Shown in pieces: positions 520 through 58,522 of a stretch of DNA of 64,000 nucleotides. The notes under the pieces were generated by a model. That model did no database searches, was not told where the DNA came from, and saw nothing but the letters and a program-made list of their open reading frames with translations. The stretch's first letter is position 1. Every line of letters starts with the position of its first letter. The position numbers and the translations under genes are program-made. This stretch comes from a virus, in the IMG/VR virus record IMGVR_UViG_3300021963_000027, positions 96,001-160,000 of that record; one strand, 5' to 3'.

Positions 520-922
520 TTACTTCACAAACGCCAAACATGCGCTGTTCATTCAAGAACAAACCGTTCTTCACTTTACCGTGACCTGTTACTTCCAAAT
601 TGGTGATTGGAATACCCATATTATTGGGGAACACTACGATATCACCGACTTCAGTGTATCGCACGTTTGGTCCTTTGAGGATGACTTTACCTTTTCTCCA
701 AGCATTATGAACTTGAGCAACAGGAATTGCAATTCCTCCACGTAGGATATAGTCACCTGTTTCTTCTCCTGTGACCAAATCACAATATTCAAGAAGCATC
801 ACATCGTCAAAAAGTTTGGATAGACTATAATCATCCAAACCAAAATCACTTGGTAGTGCTTTATCACTAAGGTCAATGTGGGATTTTTGAGGGGCTAAAA
901 CATCAATAGATACTTTCGACAT
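494..922 (-). CDS. GroES/Cpn10-like co-chaperonin
   Basis: GKVILKGPNVRYTEVGDIVVFP and FLNEQRMFGV match the Cpn10 pattern. Confidence 0.7.
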   Translation of the reverse strand: MSKVSIDVLAPQKSHIDLSDKALPSDFGLDDYSLSKLFDDVMLLEYCDLVTGEETGDYILRGGIAIPVAQVHNAWRKGKVILKGPNVRYTEVGDIVVFPNNMGIPITNLEVTGHGKVKNGLFLNEQRMFGVCEVNAEKIKTK

Positions 923-927
923 GAATA

Positions 928-933
928 TATTTA
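928..933 (-). promoter_or_regulatory. Late promoter core TAAATA
   Basis: TAAATA-N5-ATG(922). Confidence 0.6.
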
Positions 934-944
934 TTCATATTACT

Positions 945-7900: not shown

Positions 7901-9460
7901 TCAAAAATTATTAGATACTAATTCTCGGATTTCACTCAATGTCCAGTCTTTAATAAGCTCTCCATTCTTGAAAACATTCACGAATGCGCAATTTTTCACA
8001 TCATCCCAAGTCGCTTGATCTTTCATAGTGAAACCATTTTCAGTTTCATACACAGCGATCAAACCTTTGGCAGATTTTTTAAGTCCATCATCAGTTTTAG
8101 GATCTTTGAAGATTTCAATACCTTTGCGTTCACCGTTCACTAGAACTTCACCATAAGTAGATTTGACTGCAAATCCGTGAGTATCTCTAGTGATAATAGC
8201 ATCAGGATTTATAGCACCTTGATAGGTAAAGCTGCCAATACCAAAGACAATGTTAGTCGATGCAAAGCCTTTATCAGCGAGACGTTGGCAGATTTGCTCT
8301 GCGCGCTCAAGAGTAATGCTATCACCATAGATTGCTCCAATGTGAGAGTCGAGCATCTTATAGCCAGTCGAAGAGACTGTGCCACCAAAGATCTCCCAGA
8401 GGCAAACAATCAGGCCCTTACGCTCAAGTTCCGATGGCAATGTAACGCCACCGCTATAACTACGAGCATGTTCAAGGGCCGTCCATTCTTCATCAGTATA
8501 GCCAGTAACAATCTTCACTGGATCACCACTGTCAGGACGAATGACAACCTTGCCATCACGAGCCATGATCAAATCTTTAAGCTGAGCACAAATGCCGCCA
8601 TCAGGATTGACTACGTTCCAGAAGTCCCAGGTATCAGAGACGATACTGACAATGCCATTTGGATAAAGTTCGGTGATGAGACGTTTAAAAGTTCCGACTT
8701 CATCTTCAAGTCCACCCATGCACATCACACTGTGTTCCGTAGCTGAGACGCTACCACCAACGAGTTCTTTATCAGAATTTGCGTTGTAATACTCTTCAAG
8801 GTAGTCAATGGCAGGAACAGTGTCAGTTCCAGTAAATGCCAGCAAGTGACCAGCACCACTCATAACAGCGGCATCGAATCCAAAGTGTCCACGGAAACTG
8901 AAGTCATGACCTTGCCATGGCACGAAATCAATCATTTCGGGACTGGTTTTTTTGCACCACTCATTGAGAATTTTACGATACATAACTGCCGTAGTAGAAC
9001 TTGTGCATGGACCCCAAAGATTGGAACTGATGATAGTTTCGATTGCATTCGTCAACCAGAAAAAATTATCGTTAGTATTCCACATGACAAGCATGGGAAC
9101 TCTCAAATTAACAGCAGAACCTTCTGGCAATGCCCAAATTTCCAATGGGAGATGTCCAAGAGCATGAAGATCACGGATATGTTGCTCGCCAATACCATTC
9201 GGTCCGAGATAATTTTTCAGACGACGATTGTAATCAGCAACTACTTCTTCAACATCTTTTTGGAAGAATTCTTCATTCCATTCCTTAATAAGATGTTCTT
9301 TGATAAACGCTTGAAGTCCGAAGAAAATAACTTTATCAAGTCCTTTCACGCGACTACCACGAGCGGTCATATTGCTATAAACAAGCAAGCTATTTTCTGG
9401 ATATTGACGACGATGATCACATTTGTATCCATCGAAGCTGAGATGCGGTTTCTTTTTCAT
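7901..9460 (-). CDS. nadV: Nicotinamide phosphoribosyltransferase-like (Nampt/NadV; candidate Namat)
   Basis: DGYK, HDFSFRG, ATEHSVM, SIVSDTWD, VVIRPDSGDP, IYGDSIT, KSAKG. Confidence 0.93.
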   Translation of the reverse strand: MKKKPHLSFDGYKCDHRRQYPENSLLVYSNMTARGSRVKGLDKVIFFGLQAFIKEHLIKEWNEEFFQKDVEEVVADYNRRLKNYLGPNGIGEQHIRDLHALGHLPLEIWALPEGSAVNLRVPMLVMWNTNDNFFWLTNAIETIISSNLWGPCTSSTTAVMYRKILNEWCKKTSPEMIDFVPWQGHDFSFRGHFGFDAAVMSGAGHLLAFTGTDTVPAIDYLEEYYNANSDKELVGGSVSATEHSVMCMGGLEDEVGTFKRLITELYPNGIVSIVSDTWDFWNVVNPDGGICAQLKDLIMARDGKVVIRPDSGDPVKIVTGYTDEEWTALEHARSYSGGVTLPSELERKGLIVCLWEIFGGTVSSTGYKMLDSHIGAIYGDSITLERAEQICQRLADKGFASTNIVFGIGSFTYQGAINPDAIITRDTHGFAVKSTYGEVLVNGERKGIEIFKDPKTDDGLKKSAKGLIAVYETENGFTMKDQATWDDVKNCAFVNVFKNGELIKDWTLSEIRELVSNNF

Positions 9461-9462
9461 AT

Positions 9463-9873
9463 TTATTTTGTATTTTTGTTTATTTTTTCTAAGAGTATTT
9501 CTAAAGTTTCTAGAGCTTGTCCTAAACCCGCTCTATCACAAAGTAAAAGATTATAGTAAATCTTACCATCGTTTCCAATTTTGTCTAGTAAATTTTTGTT
9601 AAGTCCTTCAATTTTAATAAGGTTGTCTTCAAAAAATTGTTCAATTTTTTCAAATCTTTCTTTCTCCGAAGCAGTGAAAACAATTAATTTGAAATTATTT
9701 TCATTACATCTTTTCAAGATATTGATAACTTCTGAGGTATCATAATCGTCTTTATAAGGGCAAACTGTGTCATCAAAGTCTACTGCAATAATTAAAGAGT
9801 TATGCTCTTTCCATTGTTGGAATAATCTCTCTGCACAATTTTCAGATTTCGTAAAAGGATGATTATATCTCAT
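9463..9873 (-). CDS. Small HAD-superfamily hydrolase
   Basis: IIAVDFDDTV (motif I), LIVFTA, LLCDRAG. Confidence 0.65.
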   Translation of the reverse strand: MRYNHPFTKSENCAERLFQQWKEHNSLIIAVDFDDTVCPYKDDYDTSEVINILKRCNENNFKLIVFTASEKERFEKIEQFFEDNLIKIEGLNKNLLDKIGNDGKIYYNLLLCDRAGLGQALETLEILLEKINKNTK

Positions 9874-10799
9874 CAGTATTTGATTTTATAAGTTGTCAAA
9901 TCAGCGAATTTTAAGATATCTGACCAATTTTGCTTACTATTGGTCGTGAAAACGAAGTCAAATTTACGTGAAACATTTTCAACCCCTTCTTGGCAATCAC
10001 TGTGCGTAGTGAACAATCCCAAAGAACCACATTTTTTCTCTCTCAATTTTTCAGCAAGACCTAAGAATGTCCCACCTTTACAATTGATATCATCGATTAT
10101 CAATGTCGGTGCGCCCTCAACAAGTCCTTCACCAACGTAAAATTCTTTCAAAGAACCATCTTTAACGTCTCGAATTTTTTCACATCGAACGAGATGATAA
10201 TGATGAGTTCTATCTTGATTGGATAGATATTCAATGATTTTCTGAACTCTTTTACCAGCACCAGCATCAGGACATACGATATTAACATCCTTACCATTCG
10301 ACATTTGCAAAACGCTTTGCAACATGAATTCACGTTCATCTAAAATATGAACATTGTTGATCAATGCTGGTGTGACATCACTATGCGGACACAGAATAGA
10401 TACCTTATCGAATCCACAAGAGTTGATCATATCTGCGAAGATTTTCAAAGTAAAGGCTTCTCCTGTATTGCAGATTCTATCTTGTCTTGCCGCTGGGAAA
10501 TAGGGTATAAACAATTCAATATTTTTAATTCCCATACGACGAACAGCATCATTGGCTATTACGATATCGATCAAATCGGACACCGAATTGATACGATGCG
10601 TGATCACCATATTACCATTATATAATGGTGATTCGATTTTAAAATTTGGTTCTCCTGCTGGAAAAAGTCCTTTGGAAAAATTAACTTTAAAAATTCCATT
10701 AAAATAATCCGCAAAAGGATCAAAATTTTGATCCAGATTGAGAACATAAAGCTCCTCACTTTCGTTTTTCCAAGTAATGTGATTTTGTTGTTTCGTCAT
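9873..10799 (-). CDS. prs: Ribose-phosphate pyrophosphokinase-like (Prs; candidate Adps)
   Basis: FPAGE, IPYFPAARQDR, VCPDAGA, IIDDINCKGGTF. Confidence 0.9.
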   Translation of the reverse strand: MTKQQNHITWKNESEELYVLNLDQNFDPFADYFNGIFKVNFSKGLFPAGEPNFKIESPLYNGNMVITHRINSVSDLIDIVIANDAVRRMGIKNIELFIPYFPAARQDRICNTGEAFTLKIFADMINSCGFDKVSILCPHSDVTPALINNVHILDEREFMLQSVLQMSNGKDVNIVCPDAGAGKRVQKIIEYLSNQDRTHHYHLVRCEKIRDVKDGSLKEFYVGEGLVEGAPTLIIDDINCKGGTFLGLAEKLREKKCGSLGLFTTHSDCQEGVENVSRKFDFVFTTNSKQNWSDILKFADLTTYKIKY

Positions 10800-10820
10800 G
10801 TTGCGATTGTAATCTAGTTT

Positions 10821-11558
10821 TTAAATTTTGAAATTCTTGATCTGATTCGTCAGATTCTTGAATTGGTTATCTTTTTCCATCCATTGACTCTGTTCTCTCA
10901 GCATTTCTTCCATCATGTCTAGATTTTTAGGATCAAGGACACTTTCTTGTGTTTCAATCAATTCGCCTTTTTGGTCGATAAATTCTCCTACCCAAGCAAT
11001 TCGATCATCGAGATTCGGGATATTTTCAATGGGGATAATTGCTGGCATATCGTCAGCAATGAAGAATGGTGTGTTCTCCAGATGATCAGAATATTGCTCA
11101 TAAAGACCTGAAAAGATGTCGTCAATCTCCTTGATATAATTCAAATTAGTATCGCGTAATCCATCTTCCACGACTTTGATGGTGGGATCGTATTTAATCC
11201 AAAAAATAATATCAAGGTTCTTTAGAGAACGTCGAACAATATCTACAGTAATTCCGAGAACATCTTCCGACACCAAATCTTTTTCCGTGGCATGAAGCGT
11301 GTATGCCAAATTATCCAAAGGACAACGATCATACACGACATATTTCTCATCCTTATTAACTTCTAGGGTCTGTGTCATCCAATCCAAGATAAGCAATTGT
11401 GTCTCTGCCGTGGTATTGGAAGAATGTTTCAAATCTTTTTCTTTGATAATATCTCTGTATGTTTTCAACGGTGTTTTATACATCTGCCATTTCTGTAAAA
11501 ATGACTTGATTAATGTGCTTTTCCCGACATTACCGCTACCACTAAACGCAATTTTCAT
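10821..11558 (-). CDS. P-loop nucleotide kinase (AAA_28/NadR-kinase or dNMP-kinase-like)
   Basis: SGSGNVGKST Walker A; YDRCPLDNLAY. Confidence 0.7.
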   Translation of the reverse strand: MKIAFSGSGNVGKSTLIKSFLQKWQMYKTPLKTYRDIIKEKDLKHSSNTTAETQLLILDWMTQTLEVNKDEKYVVYDRCPLDNLAYTLHATEKDLVSEDVLGITVDIVRRSLKNLDIIFWIKYDPTIKVVEDGLRDTNLNYIKEIDDIFSGLYEQYSDHLENTPFFIADDMPAIIPIENIPNLDDRIAWVGEFIDQKGELIETQESVLDPKNLDMMEEMLREQSQWMEKDNQFKNLTNQIKNFKI

Positions 11559-12360: not shown

Positions 12361-12531
12361 TTACTTCGCCCCCCAAGAAGTTCCGTTAAACCACGAAAGA
12401 CCTTTTGGATTTTCCAAAGTTGGTTGTGGTTTTTCTTCTTTGATTGGTTGCTCGACAGCTTTCGGCGTTTCTTCTTCACCGTTTACGATCTTAAAATTCT
12501 CATCCTCTTTCACCACGATTTCTATGTTCAT
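12361..12531 (-). CDS. Small hypothetical protein
   Basis: Start 12531 lies 5 nt below a full TATAAATA. Confidence 0.55.
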   Translation of the reverse strand: MNIEIVVKEDENFKIVNGEEETPKAVEQPIKEEKPQPTLENPKGLSWFNGTSWGAK

Positions 12532-12536
12532 GGTGA

Positions 12537-12544
12537 TATTTATA
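12537..12544 (-). promoter_or_regulatory. Late promoter TATAAATA
   Basis: Full T4 late consensus, N5 to ATG(12531). Confidence 0.65.
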
Positions 12545-13583: not shown

Positions 13584-14051
13584 TTAATAATCACGGGACT
13601 GATCGAAACCAGTATTCGCAAAATCAGCTTTAGCATCAAGACGATGCCAAACATCGGAAACATAAGTCGAAGAAATAGTAATCGCTGAAACCATCCAATC
13701 TTCAAATTCACAATCGTTTCTCATTTCATACAAACGATTAGCATATTCAGCGAGTTTTTTCAACTCAGATACAAGAACCTCATTGACTTCATGTTTTTCC
13801 ACAGGACTAATTGGATCAAATTCCATAACCATCCCATGTGCTTCAGGCTCATCGTCGTCACCGAAGTCATCACCCTCACTATCAAATCCACCCTCACCGA
13901 AATCTGGATCATCGTCCATCATTCCATAATCATCATCATCACCCATGTCATCACCAAAGTCATCATCCATCTCGTCATCGAATCTTTCGTTCATAACTCC
14001 ACCACGGAAAGATTCCCAAATCACTTTATTTTCTTCTCCTTTGAATTTCAT
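13584..14051 (-). CDS. Highly acidic hypothetical protein
   Basis: Asp/Gly-rich segment; late motif upstream. Confidence 0.7.
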   Translation of the reverse strand: MKFKGEENKVIWESFRGGVMNERFDDEMDDDFGDDMGDDDDYGMMDDDPDFGEGGFDSEGDDFGDDDEPEAHGMVMEFDPISPVEKHEVNEVLVSELKKLAEYANRLYEMRNDCEFEDWMVSAITISSTYVSDVWHRLDAKADFANTGFDQSRDY

Positions 14052-14056: not shown

Positions 14057-14062
14057 TATTTA
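14057..14062 (-). promoter_or_regulatory. Late promoter core TAAATA
   Basis: N5 to ATG(14051). Confidence 0.6.
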
Positions 14063-14474: not shown

Positions 14475-14939
14475 TTAATAAGTTCTTCCAACTGCGGATT
14501 GTTTTACTGCTTGTAATCCTTTTTTAATTCTCACGGAACCTTTTCTGTAAGCATCAACAGCTTGTCCAGCAAGATTTTGTCTTTCTTTAACTGCTGATTT
14601 TGCTTTTTGTGCGGAAGTGCCAAACAATTTACCTGCAAGACCTTTCAAGCCACTGGAAGCTTTACCTGCCAAACCTTCAACTTCTTTATCGACTTCATAC
14701 GTACCTGTTCCAGCATCAATAGATTCGTCTTCTTCAGCGTATTTTTTCTTTTTGAGACGTTTTTTCTTTTCATGCAAGAGCATTTTAGCTTTGAAAGCAT
14801 CTTCCCTTTTCTGCTCATTAGCTGGATCATATTGCTCCAGAATTTCTAAAAATTTGCTTTTTTTAGCTTTGGAAGAATCATCCATTTTACGCTTAGTAGC
14901 TGGATCATGTTCTTCGATAATTTTCAAAAATTTATTCAT
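14475..14939 (-). CDS. Hypothetical protein with duplicated N-terminal segment
   Basis: KFLKIIEEHDPA and KFLEILEQYDPA repeats. Confidence 0.7.
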   Translation of the reverse strand: MNKFLKIIEEHDPATKRKMDDSSKAKKSKFLEILEQYDPANEQKREDAFKAKMLLHEKKKRLKKKKYAEEDESIDAGTGTYEVDKEVEGLAGKASSGLKGLAGKLFGTSAQKAKSAVKERQNLAGQAVDAYRKGSVRIKKGLQAVKQSAVGRTY

Positions 14940-14943: not shown

Positions 14944-15441
14944 TTATTTAATCAAAATAGTCATCTTATTGACAACTTCTTGGAAATATTGCTCATTGAG
15001 AAAAGTCAGACCCTCTTTCTCCAAATATTTAGATATTTTTCGGAATGATGGTGTTTTTCTATTTTGAAATGCTGATTCAAATTCTGAGATAACTTCAGCA
15101 TTCCAAATTTTCAAAAGATATTCTAATTTTTCAAAGTCGAAATTCTTCTCGATGATATTGATTTTGAAAATTCTACGAACTTTTTTCAAAAGCTGATTGC
15201 GGAATTTATCCTTTGTCAGTGTATTGGAGAAAAATACAAAATCTTGTCGTGTATATTTCAAAAATTCGGTGAATGTCTTGATGAATTCATGAGTATACAA
15301 TTTCTGGTTATTTCTTTTAGAGAAATCAAAAGTTGTAGTCAATCCTAGACTTTCCAGAAGAGTTGCGAAATTTTCATTTGTTTCTTTGAAAACCTCATCA
15401 ATATCGATGATTTTCTTATTTTGAAAATAAATTCTACTCAC
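14944..15441 (-). CDS. Hypothetical protein
   Basis: 165-aa ORF overlapping the upstream gene by 4 nt. Confidence 0.65.
   Translation of the reverse strand: MSRIYFQNKKIIDIDEVFKETNENFATLLESLGLTTTFDFSKRNNQKLYTHEFIKTFTEFLKYTRQDFVFFSNTLTKDKFRNQLLKKVRRIFKINIIEKNFDFEKLEYLLKIWNAEVISEFESAFQNRKTPSFRKISKYLEKEGLTFLNEQYFQEVVNKMTILIK
14945..14950 (-). promoter_or_regulatory. Late promoter core TAAATA
   Basis: N5 to ATG(14939). Confidence 0.6.
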
Positions 15442-15902
15442 AACCCAAGAGTAACAGGGTCACGTTCGATGTCAACATAATTTTTGGGAATGACACCTAA
15501 GCGGACATTTAGAATGCCATTGTAGTATTTTTGATCCATCAATGCATTGCATTTAATTTGCCAAATCAATTCTCCGTAGGTCATATGGAATTTTGATTGA
15601 CAGACTTCTATCACTTCTCTGGAAAAATGCTCAATACCGTATTTCTCAATGTCTGCAAGCAATTCCTTGGACGATCCCCAATACTTTTCAACATCGTTGT
15701 CCACATAAGAAATTCTATTGCGTGTCTTACCTTTCAATGGTTTCCTTTTTACTTTCTTGAGCAATTTCTTTTGCCCAATGTAGTATTTTTTCTTGGAATC
15801 TGGATGATTATTGCGAATGAGGTAAACAAATCCTACAACACCTTCCGTATCGGTTGGGAAATTTTTCCATGAGCTTTGGGGTTGACTTTCTGATTTTTGC
15901 AT
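15438..15902 (-). CDS. GIY-YIG-family endonuclease
   Basis: GFVYLIRN...KYYIGQK, YWGSS, FSREVI, YYN. Confidence 0.8.
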   Translation of the reverse strand: MQKSESQPQSSWKNFPTDTEGVVGFVYLIRNNHPDSKKKYYIGQKKLLKKVKRKPLKGKTRNRISYVDNDVEKYWGSSKELLADIEKYGIEHFSREVIEVCQSKFHMTYGELIWQIKCNALMDQKYYNGILNVRLGVIPKNYVDIERDPVTLGL

Positions 15903-16206: not shown

Positions 16207-16234
16207 TTGACATCCAAAAAATTTGTGCTACATT
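16207..16234 (+). promoter_or_regulatory. Sigma70-type promoter, probably leaderless
   Basis: TTGACA-N16-TACATT with TGn extension; 6 nt to ATG(16241). Confidence 0.6.
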
Positions 16235-16240
16235 CCAAAC

Positions 16241-17167
16241 ATGGAACTGAATTACATCAAAAATATTGACGCAATGACTGGATTGAAGGAATTGCCCGAC
16301 AAATCGATCCATTGTTGTCTCACATCACCTCCTTACTACAACCTTCGTCAATACACAGATGATGAAAATGAATTTGGATTGGCAGAGACACCTGAAGAAT
16401 TTGTCAATGGATTATGTGATTACTACGATGAAGTTTACCGTGTAATGCGAGATGATGGTGTGGTATTTGTGAACTTGGGAGACACATATCTTGGAAGTGG
16501 TAAAGGTGTTTGGAAAAACAAAGAAGAACCTCAAAAAGAGTCATTCAAATTTCGAGAAAAACCCAAAGAAAAATTGGGTGGTTGGAGAAAACCCAAACAA
16601 TTGGCACTAATTCCTTTCCGTTTTGCCATTGAGATGCAGAACAGAGGTTGGATTTTGAGAAATAATATCGTGTGGCATAAAGGAAATGCCCTTCCACAGA
16701 GCGTTACAGATCGTTTCGTCGTTGATTTTGAATCGGTGTTCATGTTTGTGAAAAGTAAATCGTATTATTTCAAACAACAAATTGAACCATTTGCCAATTC
16801 TTCCAATCCTGATGAAGTATATACAGGAGAGGCTACGAAGGATTATGAGTCTCAGAAGGCTCAGAACCCAAGTGATACGAAGAGAAGGATTCTGGACGCA
16901 ATGCGTAAGCGAGGAGGACGCTCCATGAGAGCAGTTTGGAAAATTAATACCAAACCCAACAAGTCCGTTCACACGGCTACATTTCCTGAAGAATTGGTGG
17001 AACGTATGTTGAAGAGTGGATGTCCTGAAAACGGTATCGTATTGGACTTCTTCATGGGTTCAGGAACAACAGGAGCAGTTGCCAAACAATTAGGTATGAA
17101 TTATATCGGCTTCGATTTGAATTCCGAATATTGTGAAGTAGCGAGAAAGAGAATTAATTCTTTTTAA
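16241..17167 (+). CDS. DNA amino-methyltransferase, beta class (second copy)
   Basis: TSPPY, HTATFP, DFFMGSGTT; start MELNY at 16241. Confidence 0.92.
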   Translation: MELNYIKNIDAMTGLKELPDKSIHCCLTSPPYYNLRQYTDDENEFGLAETPEEFVNGLCDYYDEVYRVMRDDGVVFVNLGDTYLGSGKGVWKNKEEPQKESFKFREKPKEKLGGWRKPKQLALIPFRFAIEMQNRGWILRNNIVWHKGNALPQSVTDRFVVDFESVFMFVKSKSYYFKQQIEPFANSSNPDEVYTGEATKDYESQKAQNPSDTKRRILDAMRKRGGRSMRAVWKINTKPNKSVHTATFPEELVERMLKSGCPENGIVLDFFMGSGTTGAVAKQLGMNYIGFDLNSEYCEVARKRINSF

Positions 17168-17390
17168 TTTTCTTCTTACGTTTTCTATTTTTCAATTTAC
17201 CTCTTCTGGTGGTGACACCCATCCCATAAGGATTCCTTGCATCTCCTGGCGCAAACCAATCGGTATTTTCAATACCAGCATGTCCAGCAACATCCCCCCC
17301 ATATACATCACCAGCAGTCATATCTTCGTTCAACATTTGTTGATAAATGTTGGCGATTTCATTTTTATCGTTGACAAAGGGTTGGTTCAT
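17154..17390 (-). CDS. Small hypothetical protein, putative head-packaged
   Basis: IANIYQQMLNE leader; basic C-terminus; late motif. Confidence 0.65.
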   Translation of the reverse strand: MNQPFVNDKNEIANIYQQMLNEDMTAGDVYGGDVAGHAGIENTDWFAPGDARNPYGMGVTTRRGKLKNRKRKKKIKKN

Positions 17391-17395: not shown

Positions 17396-17401
17396 TATTT
17401 A
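17396..17401 (-). promoter_or_regulatory. Late promoter core TAAATA
   Basis: N5 to ATG(17390). Confidence 0.6.
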
Positions 17402-18369: not shown

Positions 18370-19778
18370 TAACATTTGATTATAAACCAACTAAGCGACA
18401 GGCGCAATTGATTACGGATTCCGAAACACTCGGTATGATCCGTAATCATTTTTCTGTTAAGAATGACGGTGCTTCTTTCGCTAAGAAGAAAGGACATCGT
18501 TTTGTAAAAGACCGTAAGTATGCAATCACGCCCACTGGTTTGTTTGACTTCGGATTTTATGGGGAGATTCTAAAACATCTAAGAGATAACCAAATTACCG
18601 ATATCACATTCACTGATGAATTTCGTGATAGATTGAAATGTGGCATTGGGAAATTCGAGTTCAAAGATGAACTTAAATATGATGCTCGTTATTATCAAAA
18701 AGATTCTATCATAGCTGGACTAGAGAAAGGTTATGGTGTTTTTCTATTAGCAACAGGAGCAGGTAAATCTCTAGCTCAAGCATTACTGATAGAAAATTAT
18801 ATGGAAAACGTATCAAATGATACATTCAAATGTCTTATCGTAGTTCCAGGTCTTTCTCTTGTAAATCAGTTACAAAAAGATTTCGAGGACTACCAAGTCA
18901 CATTCTCATATTCAGGTTGGACTGGTGAAAGTCCTTTGCAAGATACTCAAGTTGTTATATGCAATACTCAGAATTTAGGTTCCAAATTTACTGATAATCC
19001 TTGGATACTTGATGTGAATTTATTGATAGTCGATGAGTGTCACGGTGTCAATAGTGATGCCAATTTGTCAAAAATTATTAATAAAATTAAAACACCAAAC
19101 AAGTTCGGTTTTACAGGGACATTATCTGATAAACCATTGAATCAATGGAAAACGCTTGGTGTCTTTGGACCAGTGATTTATGAGAAGAAATCCAAAGAAT
19201 TGAGAGATGAGAAATATCTATCAAATGTTAATATAAATGTTTTAAAATTGAAACATTCAAAAACATATAAATTAAATTATAAACAAGAATTAGAATACTT
19301 ATATAAAAATGAAAAACGGAATGATTTTATTTGTAAATTGGCTGGCAAACTTAATGGTAACGTTCTTATTATGGTTAATCACTTGGAACATGGCGATTCT
19401 TTACTATCTGTTTTGTCTAATAAATTGGATAGACATATATATTTTGTCAAAGGTGAAGTCGATGTTCAAGAAAGACAAAAAATAATTGACATGATGGAAA
19501 AGAATGATAATATCATTTGTATTGCGATGTCATCTATCTTTTCCACAGGTATCAACATTAAAAATCTTCCAAATATTATGTTTGTTGGATTGGGTAAGAG
19601 CTTTATTCGTGTTGTTCAGTCAATTGGTAGAGGACTTCGTTTGCATGAAAGTAAAGACAAATTGAGGATATTTGATGTTGTCGATGATACCAAATATTCA
19701 TCTTCCCATGCCGAATACAGACAAGAAATTTATGATAAAGAAGATATCCAATGGACGGAAAGAACAATTGAAATATGA
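18366..19778 (+). CDS. uvsW: SF2 DNA helicase (UvsW-like)
   Basis: LATGAGKS, DECH, GFTGT, STGINI, QSIGRGLR. Confidence 0.92.
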   Translation: MITFDYKPTKRQAQLITDSETLGMIRNHFSVKNDGASFAKKKGHRFVKDRKYAITPTGLFDFGFYGEILKHLRDNQITDITFTDEFRDRLKCGIGKFEFKDELKYDARYYQKDSIIAGLEKGYGVFLLATGAGKSLAQALLIENYMENVSNDTFKCLIVVPGLSLVNQLQKDFEDYQVTFSYSGWTGESPLQDTQVVICNTQNLGSKFTDNPWILDVNLLIVDECHGVNSDANLSKIINKIKTPNKFGFTGTLSDKPLNQWKTLGVFGPVIYEKKSKELRDEKYLSNVNINVLKLKHSKTYKLNYKQELEYLYKNEKRNDFICKLAGKLNGNVLIMVNHLEHGDSLLSVLSNKLDRHIYFVKGEVDVQERQKIIDMMEKNDNIICIAMSSIFSTGINIKNLPNIMFVGLGKSFIRVVQSIGRGLRLHESKDKLRIFDVVDDTKYSSSHAEYRQEIYDKEDIQWTERTIEI

Positions 19779-37486: not shown

Positions 37487-37492
37487 TATTTA
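37487..37492 (-). promoter_or_regulatory. Late promoter core TAAATA
   Basis: N5 to ATG(37481). Confidence 0.6.
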
Positions 37493-37531
37493 ATTGATTG
37501 ACACTTATAGTATCCATGTTAAGGTAATCCC

Positions 37532-43341: not shown

Positions 43342-43806
43342 ATGAATAACATTCCCGAAGAAATTGAAGCAATGGCATTTTTGATTGGACAATCCAGTCA
43401 AATTGATCAAATGATGGTTGATCGACCATCGACACTTATCACATCAACACATACTTTGAAAAAAGGTTTGAATGATTATATTCAAACACAAAGACAACAA
43501 GCACCTCCTCCTCCTCCTGTTCAATATCCCCAAGTTGCTCAACCACCTATCGTCCCAATTCCAAATTATGTTCCACCTCAAGAACTACCCCAAGTTCCTC
43601 AGTATGCTCCAATGCCACAAAAAGTGGATGATGGGCAATTGGAATTGAATTTGGAGCCAACTAAAGTGGAAGAAGTTATTATTTTATTGAGAGAAATCTC
43701 CAATAAGTTGACAAAGCAGAATAATCTGCTAGAAAAGACATATGCAAATCAATCTAAACAGAAAACCGTTTCAGAACCTATTGTTAAGCTTGTCACAAAT
43801 AAGTGA
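43342..43806 (+). CDS. Pro/Gln-rich hypothetical protein
   Basis: QAPPPPPVQYPQ repeats. Confidence 0.7.
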   Translation: MNNIPEEIEAMAFLIGQSSQIDQMMVDRPSTLITSTHTLKKGLNDYIQTQRQQAPPPPPVQYPQVAQPPIVPIPNYVPPQELPQVPQYAPMPQKVDDGQLELNLEPTKVEEVIILLREISNKLTKQNNLLEKTYANQSKQKTVSEPIVKLVTNK

Positions 43807-44449
43807 TACATGTGTTCTAGAGATGAAAGATGACGGCATACATGGTATTTCCTCTAGCGAGGATAACTCCATGTATGCTCATGCATATCTAAGAGGTGAT
43901 TTCGAAGAAAAGAATCTGAATCTACCTTCTCTGAAGAAGCTTTCCAAAGCATTAGACATGGTATCATCTGATACTGTGAAGCTAAAGTTGAACGGAAACC
44001 ATTTGGAGTATAAAGATAAGCAAATCAAATTCAAATACCATCTCCATGAAGAAGGAGTCATCACTAGACCCAAGTTATCTCTGGAAAAGATTCGTAATTT
44101 TGAATATAACATCGAATTTGAGTTGGACTTTGATTTCCTTTCCAATATTCTTCAAAAATCTTCCATCACAAACACCAAAAAATTATATATTTTCACAGAA
44201 GATGGTAATTTGGTGTGGAAAGTAGGAGACGAGACTGTTCCAAACAGCGATACTCTGAGTATTGTAGGGGATGAAGTTGAATTTGAACTCAATCCTTTCA
44301 TTCTAAAGATTGACAATTTGAAATTATTGTCTAAAGTATCGAAGACGGGTAATGTATTCAAAATCAATTCCAAGTTGGGAGTTGGTTGTATCGTCACGAA
44401 GAGTGGTGATTTTGAAATGGAATATATTTTTAGCTCATTGAAGAATTAA
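43742..44449 (+). CDS. Sliding clamp (gp45/PCNA-like)
   Basis: 235 aa; two alpha/beta repeats (LPSLKKLSKAL, IDNLKLL); replication cluster. Confidence 0.7.
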   Translation: MQINLNRKPFQNLLLSLSQISDTCVLEMKDDGIHGISSSEDNSMYAHAYLRGDFEEKNLNLPSLKKLSKALDMVSSDTVKLKLNGNHLEYKDKQIKFKYHLHEEGVITRPKLSLEKIRNFEYNIEFELDFDFLSNILQKSSITNTKKLYIFTEDGNLVWKVGDETVPNSDTLSIVGDEVEFELNPFILKIDNLKLLSKVSKTGNVFKINSKLGVGCIVTKSGDFEMEYIFSSLKN

Positions 44450-45805: not shown

Positions 45806-45811
45806 TAAATA
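45806..45811 (+). promoter_or_regulatory. Late promoter core TAAATA
   Basis: N5 to ATG(45817). Confidence 0.55.
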
Positions 45812-45816: not shown

Positions 45817-46143
45817 ATGAAGAATAATATTACCACACAAGGTTATTTTGTTAAAAGATTGAGAGATTCTGGTTTCGTCGTGGTCAAATTGTTTGATCAA
45901 TACGGTCAACATGATCCTCGTAAATGGTCTGTGATGGTAGACCCAAGTAATACATCTGTGATGATCACTTGTTATCAAAACAAAGAGTTCAAAGGTGATA
46001 TTCTATTCGAGATTAATGACGGTGGAAATCGTTTTATTAAAAATTTCAACCTCAAAACACAAAGTATGGAGATTGTCATCACCACTTTGATTGAAAAGGG
46101 TGTTGGACAAATCGAAGAAAATTCAGTCTATAAAAAAGACTAA
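45817..46143 (+). CDS. Hypothetical protein
   Basis: 108-aa ORF. Confidence 0.7.
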   Translation: MKNNITTQGYFVKRLRDSGFVVVKLFDQYGQHDPRKWSVMVDPSNTSVMITCYQNKEFKGDILFEINDGGNRFIKNFNLKTQSMEIVITTLIEKGVGQIEENSVYKKD

Positions 46144-46146
46144 ATA
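46141..46146 (+). promoter_or_regulatory. Late promoter core TAAATA
   Basis: N5 to ATG(46152). Confidence 0.55.
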
Positions 46147-46151: not shown

Positions 46152-46463
46152 ATGGAAAAGGGAGAAGAACCCCCTGATGAGGTATTTGTGGATGAAAAGG
46201 TTTTAGAAATCCTTAGAGAATCTTTGAAACAAAAGCTCAAAAGAGATAGAAAAGGTGGTAAAAGCGTAATTAAAAATGCTTTAAAAGCTACAATGCAAGA
46301 ATTTTTAACATGTGGTAAACTCTTAGGTTACGATTTAGATGGAAATGTGGTGGAAATCTCATTTCATTCTAATAAATTAGAAGATAACGCCATGCAGAAC
46401 CTCTTCATTCAAAAATTTGGAGAGTTCATGGCTGGTAGAATGAATATATCAGGTGATTTTTAA
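46152..46463 (+). CDS. Hypothetical protein
   Basis: 103-aa ORF. Confidence 0.7.
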   Translation: MEKGEEPPDEVFVDEKVLEILRESLKQKLKRDRKGGKSVIKNALKATMQEFLTCGKLLGYDLDGNVVEISFHSNKLEDNAMQNLFIQKFGEFMAGRMNISGDF

Positions 46464-47750: not shown

Positions 47751-48155
47751 TTATTCACGCTTTTTAGCGACAGACGTATCAATAGCATTACAAAATCTAT
47801 CAATTTCACTTCTAATTCTTTCAATTGATCCCAATTCACTTGTTAAATCACCGATAATAGTGTTATTACGTGATTGTGAAATAGACGATAATACATTATC
47901 TTTAAGATACGTATCAATTTTTTCAAAATTTGCTTTCCAGCTATCAACAGTGGAAATCATTTCTTGATTTTGAGAATCATCTCCCATAGTAGCCATAACA
48001 TTTGGATCTGCTTCTGTATCTACACCATATTCATCGAGAGTGATTCCATCATCCAATTGTCCAGCAGCAGCAGCTTCTTCAGCAGCAGGATCGAACTCCA
48101 GTTCAGGTGCTTCTTGTAGTAATTTGAGGAATTTAGCTTGAAATTTGTTTCGCAT
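47751..48155 (-). CDS. Hypothetical protein, putative head-packaged
   Basis: Start MRNKFQAKFLKLLQE at 48155 under a late motif. Confidence 0.7.
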   Translation of the reverse strand: MRNKFQAKFLKLLQEAPELEFDPAAEEAAAAGQLDDGITLDEYGVDTEADPNVMATMGDDSQNQEMISTVDSWKANFEKIDTYLKDNVLSSISQSRNNTIIGDLTSELGSIERIRSEIDRFCNAIDTSVAKKRE

Positions 48156-48159: not shown

Positions 48160-48513
48160 TTATTTAGTGTTAGGGGTTGGTGTTGCTGTATTGGCAGTTG
48201 GTGTTGCTGTATTGGCAGTTGGTGTTGCTGTATTAGCACTTGGTGTTCCTTTATTAGTGGAACTCGTCTCCACATAATTTTTAATCAAATTGTATATTTG
48301 TTGGGTATGATTTCCAGCATTACCACCAAAAATTTTAGATATATCTTTACCAAGATCATATGCAGCAGATTGAGCGAATTCGTGTATTTTATTAACATCT
48401 CGCATTCCTTGTTTAGAAAATCCTCCTACAATTTTATTAGCGAATCTACGAAGAAATCCTTCTTCTAAAATTTCTTCTAATTTTTTCTGATCTTCTATCG
48501 AATAACGTGCCAT
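48160..48513 (-). CDS. Hypothetical protein with C-terminal (TANTATP)n repeat
   Basis: Leader KKLEEILEEG; Thr-rich tail. Confidence 0.7.
   Translation of the reverse strand: MARYSIEDQKKLEEILEEGFLRRFANKIVGGFSKQGMRDVNKIHEFAQSAAYDLGKDISKIFGGNAGNHTQQIYNLIKNYVETSSTNKGTPSANTATPTANTATPTANTATPTPNTK
48161..48166 (-). promoter_or_regulatory. Late promoter core TAAATA
   Basis: N5 to ATG(48155). Confidence 0.6.
48176..48240. repeat. 21-nt tandem repeat, about 3 copies
   Basis: GTTGGTGTTGCTGTATTGGCA units encoding ANTATPT. Confidence 0.85.
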
Positions 48514-48518: not shown

Positions 48519-48524
48519 TATTTA
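48519..48524 (-). promoter_or_regulatory. Late promoter core TAAATA
   Basis: N5 to ATG(48513). Confidence 0.6.
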
Positions 48525-48549
48525 GCTTAAATGATTAAATAATCTATGT

Positions 48550-48903
48550 ATGGCTGCTTCAAATTCTCCTTATTCTACTGCAATCGCCTCTGGTGCTATT
48601 GATTTTGATTTCAAAAATCCTCTAAATCCTTCTGAACAGATGAGAAAATATAAAACGGATGAGAAATTGGCACAAGCACCAGACACTCTCCCATATGAAT
48701 TTGAAGGACTGCCTCAATATCTAGCCGATATCCAAGACAGTGCATTTCAAGCGTCTTCCAAACTGAATAATATCATTAAAATGGAAAAATATCAAAAAAA
48801 TGGTGATCTAATTAAGCTGAAAGGTAATCTGGAGAAGATCATGATGTATTTGATGAAAAATGGTGACAAGATATTGTCGAATTATACCATTGGCAATAAT
48901 TAA
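48550..48903 (+). CDS. Hypothetical protein
   Basis: 117-aa ORF. Confidence 0.65.
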   Translation: MAASNSPYSTAIASGAIDFDFKNPLNPSEQMRKYKTDEKLAQAPDTLPYEFEGLPQYLADIQDSAFQASSKLNNIIKMEKYQKNGDLIKLKGNLEKIMMYLMKNGDKILSNYTIGNN

Positions 48904-48918
48904 AAACTAGAGTATAAT
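48890..48918 (+). promoter_or_regulatory. Sigma70-type promoter, probably leaderless
   Basis: TTGGCA-N17-TATAAT; 5 nt to ATG(48924). Confidence 0.6.
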
Positions 48919-53839: not shown

Positions 53840-54514
53840 TTATGAAGTTCTTTTCCAGACATAAACACCGAATGATGGTGGTGTATTATCAATAGGGTTC
53901 CCACTACCAGTATTATCCAAAAATACCTGACCATCTAAATTTAGCGTTTTATTCGTACTGTCGTCTGTCGTATGACCAGCGTTCTCGTGAACCATGGAAC
54001 GTCTGGAATCCAATAAAGTTGGTTCACCGCTCATAAGAGTCTCTCCACTAGGTCCTCTAGTGCCAGTGACTCCAGTGTGGGTATGACTTGGTAACTGTCC
54101 TACAGTTAATGTGGTTACATATTCACCACTATTATCACCGCTTGTAATGTTTTTAAGATTTACTCCATCGTCACCCAAACCGACACCAGCCAAAAATCTA
54201 CCTTCTGCCACAGCTTGCCATTTGGTATTCGAAAATCTCGATTGTGGATTGACATCATCAGATGAGAGATAAATTGAATTCACAGGATAAAGGTAATCAA
54301 TCAAAGTGGAGTAATTACCGATGCTATAATTGTCAGATGATAAAGTTCCAGTGAAAGATGCACCATTGCCATCAGAACCCACTTTAAAAGAAGTTTTATT
54401 ACCCGAACCATCATAAACTTGGGGTAAACTGGCTCCATCAGTGGGGACATTTGAGGTGTGTAATATTCCTTTATAAGAATCTGCGATGAATTGGTCAGTG
54501 AGATCAGGTAGCAT
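53840..54514 (-). CDS. Baseplate/short-fibre protein with collar-like C-terminus
   Basis: YPVNSIYLS, W..VAEGRFLAGVG, LPSHTH, PPSFGVYVWKRT. Confidence 0.75.
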   Translation of the reverse strand: MLPDLTDQFIADSYKGILHTSNVPTDGASLPQVYDGSGNKTSFKVGSDGNGASFTGTLSSDNYSIGNYSTLIDYLYPVNSIYLSSDDVNPQSRFSNTKWQAVAEGRFLAGVGLGDDGVNLKNITSGDNSGEYVTTLTVGQLPSHTHTGVTGTRGPSGETLMSGEPTLLDSRRSMVHENAGHTTDDSTNKTLNLDGQVFLDNTGSGNPIDNTPPSFGVYVWKRTS

Positions 54515-54519: not shown

Positions 54520-54525
54520 TATTTA
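54520..54525 (-). promoter_or_regulatory. Late promoter core TAAATA
   Basis: N5 to ATG(54514). Confidence 0.6.
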
Positions 54526-56304
54526 TTCGGAAGTTGTTAAATTGGAAATTAATTTTTGTTGAATTTCGACTATTAATGTGAAAATTCTTTGCATAGTTGT
54601 TGTGTTGATGCTTTCATTGCCATTAATTCGTAAATTATCAAAGTCGTAACTGATCAATTCAATATTATTCAATAATACGTCATCTTTTTTAAAATTAAAT
54701 GAATTTGACGCTTTGGTGAAGAGTGTCAATACGTCTTTCAGAATGTTCGAAAGATTTTGGTTGAAAAATATACCGAACGAATAATCTCCACATGTCACAT
54801 TTTTGAAATTTTTCGTGATATTACTATCAATTGCAGTGTATCTATTATCTTCGATAGGTTGTTTTAGTACATATATTCTACCAGAATTGTGTAATAATGT
54901 GTAATTTTTATCACCCTTAGTAATTTCACTGAATAGTATGTTATAAAAGTTATTGGCGTTCATTCTATTCGTATTCCACTTAATTGGAGCGTTGTCACTG
55001 CCAAATTTATGATAAGTGTTTTTGAAGAGATAGTCAGGTGGATATTTCAAATTGAATTTCTTGAAATTATTGGCAGTATTACGTGGGTTGGATATAAATC
55101 TAGTTTCAATATTCTTCACACTTCTTATATAAAATATATTAGAATCGTAAGTTGAAAAAGCGATATCATAATTATCCACCTCCAAATCATTTATTTCATA
55201 ATTAGTGAAAGTAGTGGAGATGGAATAAGGAACAAATGTAAAAATTGAATAAATACCGTTTTTTTCATGTAAAATGATGACAAAATCGTCAACACTTCTG
55301 ATATCAATCGCCACGACATTTTCTATACTATATTCAGATAGATTTACTCTTCCAAGTAATGTTGAAGATTTTTTATTCCAAAGATAAAGAATATTCCCAT
55401 CAATTACGGTTCTCATATTGTCACCATATTTCATAAATTTCACATTATTGGAATTTATGTTGAAAAATTTGTCATTGAAATTGCCAAATGCTTTTGAAAA
55501 TTTCTCTTTAGCACTCCATTTTAAAGAAATGGTGTCAACATTGCCGATTTTTATACTATCAACTAAGATTAAAGCTTCACATTCGATATAATTCAATCCT
55601 TCATAAGTGTTGATGACATCATTTATAATTATATTGATTTTATTTTCAAATTCATCATAATTTATACCATAAACCTCCTCGCCAAATTCCAAGTTTTGAA
55701 TATTATATGTCAATAATGAAGTATCATCAAATGATCCATTTATTGTTATCAATTCTTTACCAGTTGAGCAGAGATATTTGAATTTTTGATCAGATTTCAC
55801 TACAAAATCACCATATTTCACTTTTTCTAAAAAATCCCATTCACTCGAATAGTTAAAATTGTCAATATGTGTGACAACATCTTTACCCACCATCAAATCA
55901 TTGTTTCTTTCATCTCTAATTGTTGATGATAGTCCATAAAAATGGCAATCGTTTTCATCGAAATCCACGATTTGAGGGTTACTAATAATCAAAGATTTGA
56001 AAACAATCAAATTGTTTGTATTGATTTTATCGAAAATTTTATCTAATTCATTTTTATTTAAAACATCGAAAGCATTAGTGAAATATGGTGTTATGTGTTG
56101 AATCGAATCAAATTGATTATCAAATTCTAATTTTTTAAGATAAAATTCCGACGAAAAATTATTTTTCGATGTCAATTCTTCAGAGAATTGGTCTTTGGTC
56201 TTGCCAGTATAAGCCACACCATTATCAACATTAAAAAATCCTGAATAATCAATACCATTTAAGGTAAAGGATTCACCGTTTGTATATTTGAAATATGTCA
56301 TCAT
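54523..56304 (-). CDS. Putative virion structural protein
   Basis: 593 aa, Asn/Phe-rich, in structural cluster. Confidence 0.6.
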   Translation of the reverse strand: MMTYFKYTNGESFTLNGIDYSGFFNVDNGVAYTGKTKDQFSEELTSKNNFSSEFYLKKLEFDNQFDSIQHITPYFTNAFDVLNKNELDKIFDKINTNNLIVFKSLIISNPQIVDFDENDCHFYGLSSTIRDERNNDLMVGKDVVTHIDNFNYSSEWDFLEKVKYGDFVVKSDQKFKYLCSTGKELITINGSFDDTSLLTYNIQNLEFGEEVYGINYDEFENKINIIINDVINTYEGLNYIECEALILVDSIKIGNVDTISLKWSAKEKFSKAFGNFNDKFFNINSNNVKFMKYGDNMRTVIDGNILYLWNKKSSTLLGRVNLSEYSIENVVAIDIRSVDDFVIILHEKNGIYSIFTFVPYSISTTFTNYEINDLEVDNYDIAFSTYDSNIFYIRSVKNIETRFISNPRNTANNFKKFNLKYPPDYLFKNTYHKFGSDNAPIKWNTNRMNANNFYNILFSEITKGDKNYTLLHNSGRIYVLKQPIEDNRYTAIDSNITKNFKNVTCGDYSFGIFFNQNLSNILKDVLTLFTKASNSFNFKKDDVLLNNIELISYDFDNLRINGNESINTTTMQRIFTLIVEIQQKLISNLTTSE

Positions 56305-58511
56305 TATTCAATAAATTCTATGTTATTTACTTCCGAAGTTAAAGGTGAGAAGGATTTGCATGTTTCCGTTACAATCCTTTTCAATTCATTTTTGATATTA
56401 TCGGGGAGACTAATATTTTTAATCAAAATATCAACATGATTTGATTTGAAGGTTTGATTATTACAGACACTTTGCAACAATTCGATTTCATCTTCGCTAT
56501 TTCTTTGTCCAGATGGAATAGTGATAACCAGAGTGTCTATACTTTGCAACCCATTGGTGTATGGTAATATTAAAGATTCGTCGAAATCGATATATCTTGT
56601 ATATATTTTGAAATTTTTAATATGATCATTATCAACAAAGTCTCCGAAAAGTATTTTCTTGCCAAAAAATTGTGATTTATCAAAAGTGAACTCTTTGATA
56701 CTTGCACCATTCAGATTAAAATATCCTCGTCCATTAATAGCATCGATAGCAACTACCAACGTGTTAATTTTTAATTTTTTAAAGCTTGCAGTAGCATCAA
56801 AACCGATAATAGTTTCATTACTAGAATCATACAAATTCATCAGAAATGAAATATTACCATCATTCTTCTTATCAATATTCAATCCACCATTAATATTATT
56901 GCGTTTACTAGAAAACGACCAATTGGTATTATCACCACTGAAAGTGAAAAATATGGAAAAGACACCATCTGCATTTATATTTTCAAAATAATTTATTTCG
57001 TTGAAAAAATTAACATTTTCAATTTTACACACTGGAATCTCATCTGGAGAACTCACAGTAGGTAAAGAATTCAACCGTTCATATACAAATACATCATTTG
57101 GTTCAATGATAAAATCACTTTTTTTATCAAAAACCTGATAAGCTGATAAACTTTGTTTGGCGAGTTCATTTCCTGATACCAATTGTTCAATCAAATCAGT
57201 GTAAGTAACATTGAAAGTTGAATTAGTCGCCAATGCTGATGCCTTCTCAATGCGATCTGGGTAATAATATCTATCTACCCATACTTTATTATTACTCGAA
57301 GGCGAACCAGATAACCAAGTGCATAGGTAATTTTGTCCATCAGTGTATCCATTGGCATTATCCAATTTGTAAACCTTATCAGCATACAGAGGAGTTGTAT
57401 ATGAAAATGCTCCTGATTCTACAAATTTTGTATCATTTATGTTGATTTTTGTGAAAGGATTTAGATCGTTTGGAGCTTTAATCGTATTCATACCACTTTT
57501 AATGATATAAGGTTTATTGTAGAATACATAATTCAAAGACAAACTTTCGTCTTTCTCACTATCAATATCATTGAAAATCGATGTATACGATCTCATCTCT
57601 TTCATGTAGAAAGGAGAATTGTTTGAAGATATCAAAGTGTTTCCAGATGTGAAAATATCTTCTTGTGTCAATTGGTTTTTCAAAGTGATGATCTCAACAT
57701 CATCGTTTTCAGAATGCAATAGATAATTGTTAGATAAATCTTTTTCTATCAGATTATCTGGGATGATGTTACTCTCCTCATAACCAACCAATGTGAAATT
57801 CTCATTGTCACCAATATTATTATAGATTTTTTTGTCAATTTTGATATTATTCAAGGGAGCCAATATTTTATTGGCACTTGTAAACGGAACTAGAGTTAGA
57901 TTATTACCTTGTTTTGTGAGTATCTTACAAGATCCATCATTTCTGAATAGGCATAACGAGTTATTAGAGCTAGAGTAAATGTAATTGAAATCTATACCAG
58001 ACAATCCTAATTTTCTAGTATAAAAATTGACAGTGTTGTTAGAATCTTGCGTTAGATAGTATTTTTTATAATTGTAAATTTTGTAAATGTTACAAACATT
58101 TGAATCTTTCAGATCAATTATAAAATTGGTCGAATCTGATGTAATATCAAGGAAAGAATAATCTCCATAATAATCATATTTTGTATAAATACCAGATAAT
58201 GCCAATTGTTCCGTATCTTTTGGTTTGAATCCCAAATAAATCCCTCCAAATTTTAAAAATGTTAGAGATTTTTCCAATTTTATAACATTTTTATCATTGA
58301 GAGTTATGTCAGACAGCTTACGTTCATCAGTCAAATAGAAAATGCTGTAATTTTTATATTTGACATCTCTGATGTTGGAAAATGCGTTATAAAAATTGAA
58401 TTTATACCCTCCATCATAGTATCTTTCAAATTTATTGAGCGTGAAATTCTCATCATTGTATGAGAAATCACGAGCTTTACAGGATGATATTTGACTTATA
58501 AAGGTATCCAC
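56304..58511 (-). CDS. Putative virion structural protein, possible LamG-like C-terminus
   Basis: 735 aa; GTG start under a late motif. Confidence 0.6.
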   Translation of the reverse strand: MDTFISQISSCKARDFSYNDENFTLNKFERYYDGGYKFNFYNAFSNIRDVKYKNYSIFYLTDERKLSDITLNDKNVIKLEKSLTFLKFGGIYLGFKPKDTEQLALSGIYTKYDYYGDYSFLDITSDSTNFIIDLKDSNVCNIYKIYNYKKYYLTQDSNNTVNFYTRKLGLSGIDFNYIYSSSNNSLCLFRNDGSCKILTKQGNNLTLVPFTSANKILAPLNNIKIDKKIYNNIGDNENFTLVGYEESNIIPDNLIEKDLSNNYLLHSENDDVEIITLKNQLTQEDIFTSGNTLISSNNSPFYMKEMRSYTSIFNDIDSEKDESLSLNYVFYNKPYIIKSGMNTIKAPNDLNPFTKININDTKFVESGAFSYTTPLYADKVYKLDNANGYTDGQNYLCTWLSGSPSSNNKVWVDRYYYPDRIEKASALATNSTFNVTYTDLIEQLVSGNELAKQSLSAYQVFDKKSDFIIEPNDVFVYERLNSLPTVSSPDEIPVCKIENVNFFNEINYFENINADGVFSIFFTFSGDNTNWSFSSKRNNINGGLNIDKKNDGNISFLMNLYDSSNETIIGFDATASFKKLKINTLVVAIDAINGRGYFNLNGASIKEFTFDKSQFFGKKILFGDFVDNDHIKNFKIYTRYIDFDESLILPYTNGLQSIDTLVITIPSGQRNSEDEIELLQSVCNNQTFKSNHVDILIKNISLPDNIKNELKRIVTETCKSFSPLTSEVNNIEFIE

Positions 58512-58516
58512 ATTAG

Positions 58517-58522
58517 TATTTA
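58517..58522 (-). promoter_or_regulatory. Late promoter core TAAATA
   Basis: N5 to GTG(58511). Confidence 0.6.

Follow-up and report, generated by a model that had tools for sequence, protein, structure and literature searches.

Why should a single hexamer, TAAATA, stand exactly 5 nt in front of one start codon after another in the genome of a phage? The question is raised by a stretch of viral DNA of 64,000 nucleotides, hereafter called the window, which covers bases 96001-160000 of the 184,181-bp IMG/VR virus record IMGVR_UViG_3300021963_000027. An earlier note on this DNA had listed 18 starts with this arrangement, had recognised in the hexamer the core of the late promoter read by the T4 sigma factor gp55, and had proposed that transcription begins on the start codon itself. 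Our analysis, carried out on the window, the whole record and a set of relatives, leads us to regard the box as very probably a gp55-type promoter; with less assurance, we consider it likely that the late messages are strictly leaderless and start at the AUG or GUG.

The record has about 35% G+C and an estimated completeness of 89%. The identity of its DNA polymerase to those of marine T4-like phages (among them Melnitz, Mosig and the cyanomyoviruses) is only about 32%, which makes the phage a distant member of the T4 family, without a close cultured relative. Positions around starts are numbered with the A of the ATG as +1, and coordinates are those of the window unless the genome is named.

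A box at a fixed distance from start codons

All of the 18 listed starts carry the motif on the expected strand: 15 read TAAATA-N5-ATG, two TAAATA-N5-GTG (24759 and 58511) and one TAAGTA-N5-ATG (31683), the full T4 sequence TATAAATA being present at a single site (start 12531). The enrichment over shuffled sequence, a comparison asked for beforehand, was clear, with 17 occurrences of TAAATA-N5-ATG in the window against 2.15 +/- 1.5 (maximum 7) in 100 dinucleotide-preserving shuffles; two of the 17 lie inside other genes (ATG at 25189 and 34572, both on the plus strand) and are due to chance. In the whole genome, 49 occurrences were counted, as against 3 of the reversed motif used as a control.

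The sharp peak predicted at a spacing of 5 was also found. When the distance from every TAAATA of the genome to a following ATG was tabulated between 0 and 30 nt, a single spike contained 49 of the 216 boxes, every other spacing having 1 to 10. Open reading frames (ORFs) of at least 60 amino acids begin at 43 of these 49, and boxes that open a long ORF number 43 at spacing 5, none at 4 and four at 6. If GTG and TTG are allowed, ORFs of at least 40 amino acids begin at 50 sites (45 ATG, 4 GTG and 1 TTG). Within the window, two looser cases add to the 18, at 61536 (minus strand, N6) and 48550 (plus strand, N8). TAAATA is the rarest of the 15 hexamers composed of four A and two T, which, since other hexamers with two TA steps are rare too, is weak evidence of depletion.

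The logo of the 50 sites shows a purine at -13 (A or G in 42 sites), a pyrimidine at -12 (C or T in 37), an invariant TAAATA from -11 to -6, and then an AT-rich spacer of consensus A-T-A-w-T, in which A and T together make up at least 80% at each position from -5 to -1. No -35 element was seen at these sites, the information content being at most 0.3 bit over -40 to -14. In T4, the late promoter TATAAATA occupies positions -13 to -6 from the transcription start (PMC1524935, PMC2988020), so that the register quoted in the earlier note agrees with the published numbering. The late promoters of phage Aeh1 read CTAAATA, with the first base at -12 (PMC1524935). In the account of Geiduschek and Kassavetis, late promoters include an a/gC variant at -13/-12, lack a -35 element and have an AT-rich stretch on the downstream side of the box (PMC2988020). 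If the first base of the start codon is taken as +1, the box is thus in agreement with the published late promoter in its sequence, its variant positions and its register. Conversely, given the T4 register of -13 to -6, +1 would fall on the A of the ATG.

Relatives were collected from 274 sheath-protein matches in IMG/VR, of which 80 loci, with 54-95% sheath identity, were kept. In each identity band of this set the peak remains at 5, and a minor shoulder is seen at 6-8. The sheath gene is preceded in this set by 41 distinct sequences, in which conservation at 80% or more is limited to the box, the T at -1 and the ATG itself. The box was present in every one of them, as TAAATA-N5 in 34, TAAGTA-N5 in two, and with a spacing of N6 in four and N7 in one.

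The genes behind the box

Annotated genes that carry the box comprise ten virion genes and three genes of homing or HNH endonucleases. Two of the virion genes are in the window, both on the minus strand: that of a virion structural protein (26624-28039, 471 amino acids; phrog_1645, E 7e-139), the first of a divergent pair, whose box at 28045-28050 precedes the ATG at 28039, and that of a tail protein (53840-54514, 224 amino acids; phrog_6465, E 3e-18), with a box at 54520-54525 and its ATG at 54514. Outside the window, the box is found before the genes of a tail chaperone, the head protease, a head-tail adaptor, a baseplate wedge protein and the tail sheath, as well as before three tail-tube paralogues, one of which lies behind TAAGTA; the portal gene has a box at N6. 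None of the 19 annotated replication or metabolism genes of the window has the exact box. These include the genes of a methyltransferase, helicases, the gp55-like factor, an SbcCD-like nuclease, a UvsX-like recombinase, a primase, the single-stranded DNA-binding protein, the sliding clamp, both DNA polymerase pieces, nicotinamide phosphoribosyltransferase and PRPP synthetase.

The box is also associated with the position of a gene in its transcription unit, since 13 of 46 box genes head a run of genes on one strand, compared with 10 of 149 motif-free genes (Fisher p = 3e-4), and no box gene overlaps the gene upstream of it, compared with 48% of the motif-free genes.

On the plus strand of the window, boxes at 24251-24256 and 24748-24753 precede an ATG at 24262 (gene 24262-24636, 124 amino acids) and a GTG at 24759 (gene 24759-25406, 215 amino acids), the TAA of the first box being the stop codon of the upstream gene. 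The box at 28523-28528 precedes the ATG at 28534 of a homing endonuclease gene (28534-29406). This gene parts the two pieces of a split DNA polymerase gene (28083-31664), of which the N-terminal piece (28083-28502) matches positions 14-129 of the profile and the main piece (29376-31664) positions 127-852. The TAAGTA variant, which also precedes the sheath gene in two relatives, is at 31672-31677, before the ATG at 31683 (gene 31683-32048, 121 amino acids). Two boxes at 45806-45811 and 46141-46146 precede the ATGs at 45817 (gene 45817-46143, 108 amino acids) and 46152 (gene 46152-46463, 103 amino acids), and the second again contains the upstream stop codon as its TAA. The additional N8 site has its box at 48536-48541, before the ATG at 48550 (gene 48550-48903, 117 amino acids).

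The minus-strand boxes begin with that at 928-933, which has a TTGACA 16 nt upstream and precedes the ATG at 922 of a gene of 142 amino acids (494-922). The full TATAAATA, with its core at 12537-12542, stands before the ATG at 12531 (gene 12361-12531, 56 amino acids). The TAA of the box at 14057-14062 is the stop codon of the gene upstream of ATG 14051 (gene 13584-14051, 155 amino acids), and a similar situation is met at 14945-14950, before the ATG at 14939 (gene 14475-14939, 154 amino acids): the end of the upstream gene is 4 nt away from this ATG, and its stop codon is within the box region. The box at 17396-17401 precedes the ATG at 17390 of a gene that heads its strand run (17154-17390, 78 amino acids).

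Further along the same strand, the box at 36760-36765 places the start of a gene of 544 amino acids (35120-36754) at ATG 36754, 20 codons inside the longest ORF. The next one, at 37487-37492, precedes ATG 37481 (gene 36759-37481, 240 amino acids), in a gene divergent from that at 37532 across a gap of 50 nt. Boxes at 48161-48166 and 48519-48524 precede the ATGs at 48155 (gene 47751-48155, 134 amino acids) and 48513 (gene 48160-48513, 117 amino acids), the latter gene being divergent from that at 48550. Finally, the box at 58517-58522 stands before the GTG at 58511 (gene 56304-58511, 735 amino acids), and the additional N6 site has its box at 61543-61548 before the ATG at 61536 (gene 59005-61536, 843 amino acids). 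Annotation based on the box shifts several starts, for example those at 36754, 37481 and 48155.

At genome position 61842-61870, on the plus strand, a short ORF that precedes the main tRNA cluster has a TAAATA 11 nt ahead of it, and this tRNA block may be under late-promoter control. As a separate observation, the SbcC/gp46-like nuclease subunit is encoded by two consecutive ORFs (21224-22141 and 22138-23214), which match the N- and C-terminal halves, respectively, of a single profile.

From the box to the message

The gp55-like gene reported in the earlier note is indeed present, at 19775-20215 on the plus strand; it encodes a putative late sigma factor of 146 amino acids (phrog_234, E 7e-24; tblastn to T4 gene 55, E 2e-11) and has no late box of its own. 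Its product is the presumed reader of the box. In T4 gp55, seven residues form base pockets (PMC7892883); in the alignment, L54 and Y97 are kept, F86 is replaced by Y, and position 95 has F, as in marine T4-like phages (H in T4). A gp45-like sliding clamp of 235 amino acids (phrog_223, E 6.5e-12) is encoded at 43742-44449, also on the plus strand, with TTGACA-N16-TAGAAA-N6-ATG in front.

A chain of events can be proposed from these elements. Host RNA polymerase, associated with the gp55-like sigma factor (19775-20215) and probably tethered to the phage sliding clamp (43742-44449), would read the TAAATA core and start transcription five bases past the box, on the first base of the start codon. 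The leaderless late mRNA so produced would be translated through recognition of its 5'-terminal start codon and not through Shine-Dalgarno (SD) pairing. This scheme supposes that the distance at which a gp55-polymerase starts is the same as in T4, and that the host ribosome translates 5'-AUG messages well. Two features expected of leaderless genes are found here. A -10-like element lies within about 6-12 nt of the start, at -11 to -6, with no SD sequence, and the start codons, 45 ATG, 4 GTG and 1 TTG among the 50, follow the rule of an AUG or GUG with a purine at +1.

The late box is not the only promoter-like signal that abuts start codons in this genome. An early box, composed of AAAAACTAG, 2 nt and TAnAnT, is present in about 100 copies in the left arm (genome 1-61 kb), where TAnAnT is separated from the ATG by 6 nt in 59 cases and by 9 nt in 16. 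Two predicted RNA genes, one for a tRNA-Met and an atypical tRNA-like one, also have this box immediately in front of them; it is therefore a transcription signal. Another class is seen in the distances from TTGACA to ATG, which cluster at 26-29 nt with a mode of 28, corresponding to TTGACA-N16-TAnnnT-N6-ATG. In the window, such sigma-70-type promoters, with ATG or GTG as the start codon, are predicted at 43713-43744 (clamp gene start), 37503-37534 (start of the gene at 37532), 16212-16243 (DNA methyltransferase gene, with a likely true start at 16241) and, on the minus strand, 15439-15469 (start of the gene at 15441). A generic sigma-70 scan was uninformative in such AT-rich DNA (81 sites versus 75 in shuffles), and the Bacteroidia promoter motif TAnnTTTG showed no positional enrichment in the genome.

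Three promoter-like signals, sorted by gene class, are thus all predicted to place +1 on the start codon. The strongest argument that the late box is not a translation element follows from this sorting. For the same reason, the layout, which the earlier note had presented as a feature of late mRNAs, holds for these but is not confined to them, as early and sigma-70-type boxes abut starts too.

Early-type boxes occur in the window as well, at 10800-10830 on the minus strand and at 48895-48918 on the plus strand; they are followed, after 5-6 nt, by the ATGs of the PRPP synthetase gene (9873-10799) and of the gene at 48924, respectively. The former gene is part of an NAD-salvage pair (7901-10799, minus strand), in which nicotinamide phosphoribosyltransferase (E 7e-186) adjoins ribose-phosphate pyrophosphokinase.

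Several points weigh against strictly leaderless messages. The transcript 5' ends are predicted from promoter geometry alone, and the start distance of a diverged gp55 is taken over from T4, while three of the seven T4 pocket residues are changed in the protein found here (N13S, R57N and T99N). The co-activator gp33 was not found: a hidden Markov model built on four sequences gave a best E value of 0.69, and tblastn with Syn9 gp33, which recovers the gp33 of T4, Mosig and Melnitz, gave no match here; the gene could sit in the missing part of the record or be too diverged to detect. The few sites with N6 to N8 would give leaders of 1-3 nt. The box brings an A to -3, -6 and -13, where this base favours initiation in the SD-blind Bacteroidia (PMC6847099). 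Finally, the absence of SD sequences at the 18 starts, reported in the earlier note, is true of these starts and is not specific to them: SD cores were found at -17 to -4 in 3% of 300 called genes, versus 7% of internal ATG controls, and since they are missing from every gene class, their lack at box genes adds nothing. The idea of a +1 on the start codon is supported by all the sequence-level tests that were run, among them the geometry, the link with virion genes, the place of the box at the head of strand runs and behind terminator hairpins, and the conservation, and not by the SD argument that had accompanied it.

A metagenome scan with a degenerate pattern of the sheath 5'-coding region gave 113 stretches; among the 80 loci listed, seven were true sheath genes, all of which extend upstream of the ATG. 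Of the contig ends of the 80 relatives, six are no more than 5 nt from an ATG or GTG opening a long ORF. Four of these are internal, one could not be matched to this genome, and a single one coincides with a true gene start, which is not above chance. This last end belongs to a contig of 6.8 kb (L065, IMGVR_UViG_3300022925_002891), whose base 1 is 3 nt before the sheath ATG and just past the expected place of the box.

Some of the points above lead directly to another possibility, in which the box is a late promoter whose transcripts start 1-5 nt before or after the A of the ATG, giving very short leaders that are translated independently of SD sequences. The N6-N8 sites of this genome, the shoulder at 6-8 in relatives and the altered pocket residues are compatible with it, as is the fact that all other genes of the phage are translated without SD sequences. 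The spacing, however, is very sharp (43 boxes at 5, none at 4 and four at 6), a precision that would be difficult to understand if the exact 5' end were of no importance, and the -10 elements of the early and sigma-70-type boxes also set +1 on the ATG. We therefore consider short leaders unlikely, and prefer transcripts that begin on the start codon.

A second alternative would place the signal in the RNA: TAAATA-N5 would be an initiation element, such as an A/U-rich binding site for bS1 or, in an SD-blind host, a Kozak-like context, on mRNAs that start further upstream. The translation context of the phage lends it some plausibility. SD sites are lacking genome-wide; with the same pipeline, SD cores were found at 55% of genes in T4 and Melnitz, 46% in Mosig and 31% in Syn9, and at the box genes of the present phage the mean SD duplex energy is +0.1 kcal/mol. 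The host or the phage thus apparently already translates without SD sequences. No match to the IF3_C, bS21 or IF1 families was found among the phage proteins. The motif-free genes are A-rich at -3/-4, -6, -8 and -11 to -13, and so resemble the situation in Flavobacterium johnsoniae, where A at -3, -6 and -12/-13 favours SD-independent initiation, most mRNAs being nevertheless leadered (PMC6847099). The box supplies several such A residues.

Nevertheless, a diffuse A-rich determinant predicts neither the invariant T at -11 and -7 nor an exact hexamer, and this hexamer is the published gp55 promoter core in its published register. The box is limited to virion and endonuclease genes, and early genes have at the same place a different, -10-containing box, which also precedes tRNA genes. 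Some divergent starts are just 28-31 nt apart, the space being filled by two back-to-back boxes, so that an upstream promoter could only be accommodated within the adjacent coding region. At genome positions 78743 and 165372, the box is preceded by a strong terminator hairpin that ends 2-3 nt away from it, and at 172727 a third hairpin is found about 25 nt ahead of the box.

The major capsid gene (genome 79411-80898, minus strand) also argues against an RNA element. The late box was not found at its start, nor at that of the large terminase gene; a 62-nt spacer precedes the capsid gene, here and likewise in a relative (L005:3414-4898). These two genes presumably ride on upstream transcripts. 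As the major capsid gene is expected to be the most heavily translated, its lack of a box fits co-transcription and not a translation enhancer. We therefore hold an initiation element on longer mRNAs to be improbable as the explanation of the box. The two roles are compatible, in that read-through transcripts could use the late promoter box as an internal initiation site of passable quality, because of its A at -3, -6 and -13.

The last alternative, a by-product of gene packing in which the TAA is the upstream stop codon and a fixed short spacer serves termination-reinitiation, appears very improbable: the upstream stop is inside the box in 15 of 33 same-strand cases (the first TAA in nine, TA plus the next base in six), but in the remaining 18 the two genes are 14-295 nt apart, for 13 box genes no gene precedes on the same strand, and the ATA that follows TAA is invariant without being required by a stop codon. 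A stop-restart junction as the main cause was accordingly rejected, being largely refuted by the distribution of gaps.

If early, sigma-70-type and late promoters were all fused to start codons in an SD-free programme, the efficiency of a start codon would depend on a transcript beginning there, and the timing of promoters would set the timing of translation, a simple link between the two. The homing endonuclease within the DNA polymerase gene, for instance, would then require its own late leaderless message for efficient synthesis. Such a programme would imply a host ribosome, or a phage-modified one, unusually good at 5'-AUG initiation; the layout itself suggests a host able to translate messages that are leaderless or SD-free. 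On the identity of this host, the only close match in bacterial genome assemblies is a 55-kb contig of 33% G+C (L240, JASLGG010000063.1). It was assigned to a metagenome-assembled genome of Protaetiibacter (Microbacteriaceae, a high-G+C family), almost certainly through a binning error, and was rejected as a host signal.

A whole clade of uncultured T4-like phages might run this SD-free programme; this wider proposal, with the consequences just named for the timing of translation, is possible, and we would not call it probable. A large environmental branch of the T4 family with its late promoter fused to the start codon would show that the gp55 system can be combined with leaderless translation. 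In practice, the start codons of abundant lake phages could be annotated from promoter boxes.

Comparison with known systems

No description of leaderless late mRNAs in a T4-like phage was found in a literature search, where the word 'leaderless' was met beside T4-like or SAR11 phages only in reference lists. Late transcription in T4 is the textbook system, and its messages have ordinary leaders with ribosome-binding sites. The phage studied here resembles T4 in the TAAATA core, the lack of a -35 element, the AT-rich stretch downstream and the presence of gp55-like and clamp genes (PMC2988020, PMC1524935, PMC7892883); in both, virion genes on either strand have the box in front of them, as have homing-endonuclease genes. 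It differs in having a purine and a pyrimidine at -13/-12 in place of TA, in that gp33, present in T4, was not detected, and in its late messages, which are predicted to lack both a leader and an SD sequence. The contrast with T4 drawn in the earlier note is borne out by the same script applied to both genomes: the distance from TATAAATA to the first ATG of a long ORF is spread over 13-34 nt in T4, whereas one peak at 5 is seen here. With this script, the distance from TAAATA to ATG is mostly 20-29 nt in Syn9, and broadly distributed in Melnitz.

Phage Aeh1 shares the variant consensus, in which a/g at -13 is followed by a pyrimidine, frequently C, at -12 (PMC1524935), its promoters being, however, described as ordinary upstream ones. 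Among cultured SAR11 myophages, a weaker signal of the TAAATA-N5-ATG type is present in HTVC008M (14 versus 4 in the control) and Mosig (11 versus 3). Sites are far fewer in these phages, and Mosig has SD cores at 46% of its genes, against 3% here.

For leaderless transcription itself, the closest parallels are found outside the T4 family. The Thermus phages phiYS40 and Lalka27a have mostly leaderless transcripts, with 5' ends mapped experimentally (PMC3594737, bioRxiv 10.64898/2026.04.20.719267). They share with the present phage promoters without a -35 element and an initiator A or G at the transcript 5' end, which here is only predicted. They are nevertheless unrelated phages, with other promoter sequences (for example TAGGGT as the late -10 element), and infect a host lineage rich in leaderless genes. 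In Actinobacteria and Deinococcus-Thermus, the start of leaderless genes is preceded, at about 10 bp, by a TA-like signal, the accepted in-silico mark of such genes (PMC3160421). The likeness lies in a -10-like element whose distance from the start is short and fixed, without an SD sequence; the difference is that the promoters of these bacteria are cellular and read by sigma-A, whereas the box described here would be a promoter for a phage sigma factor, serving one temporal class of genes.

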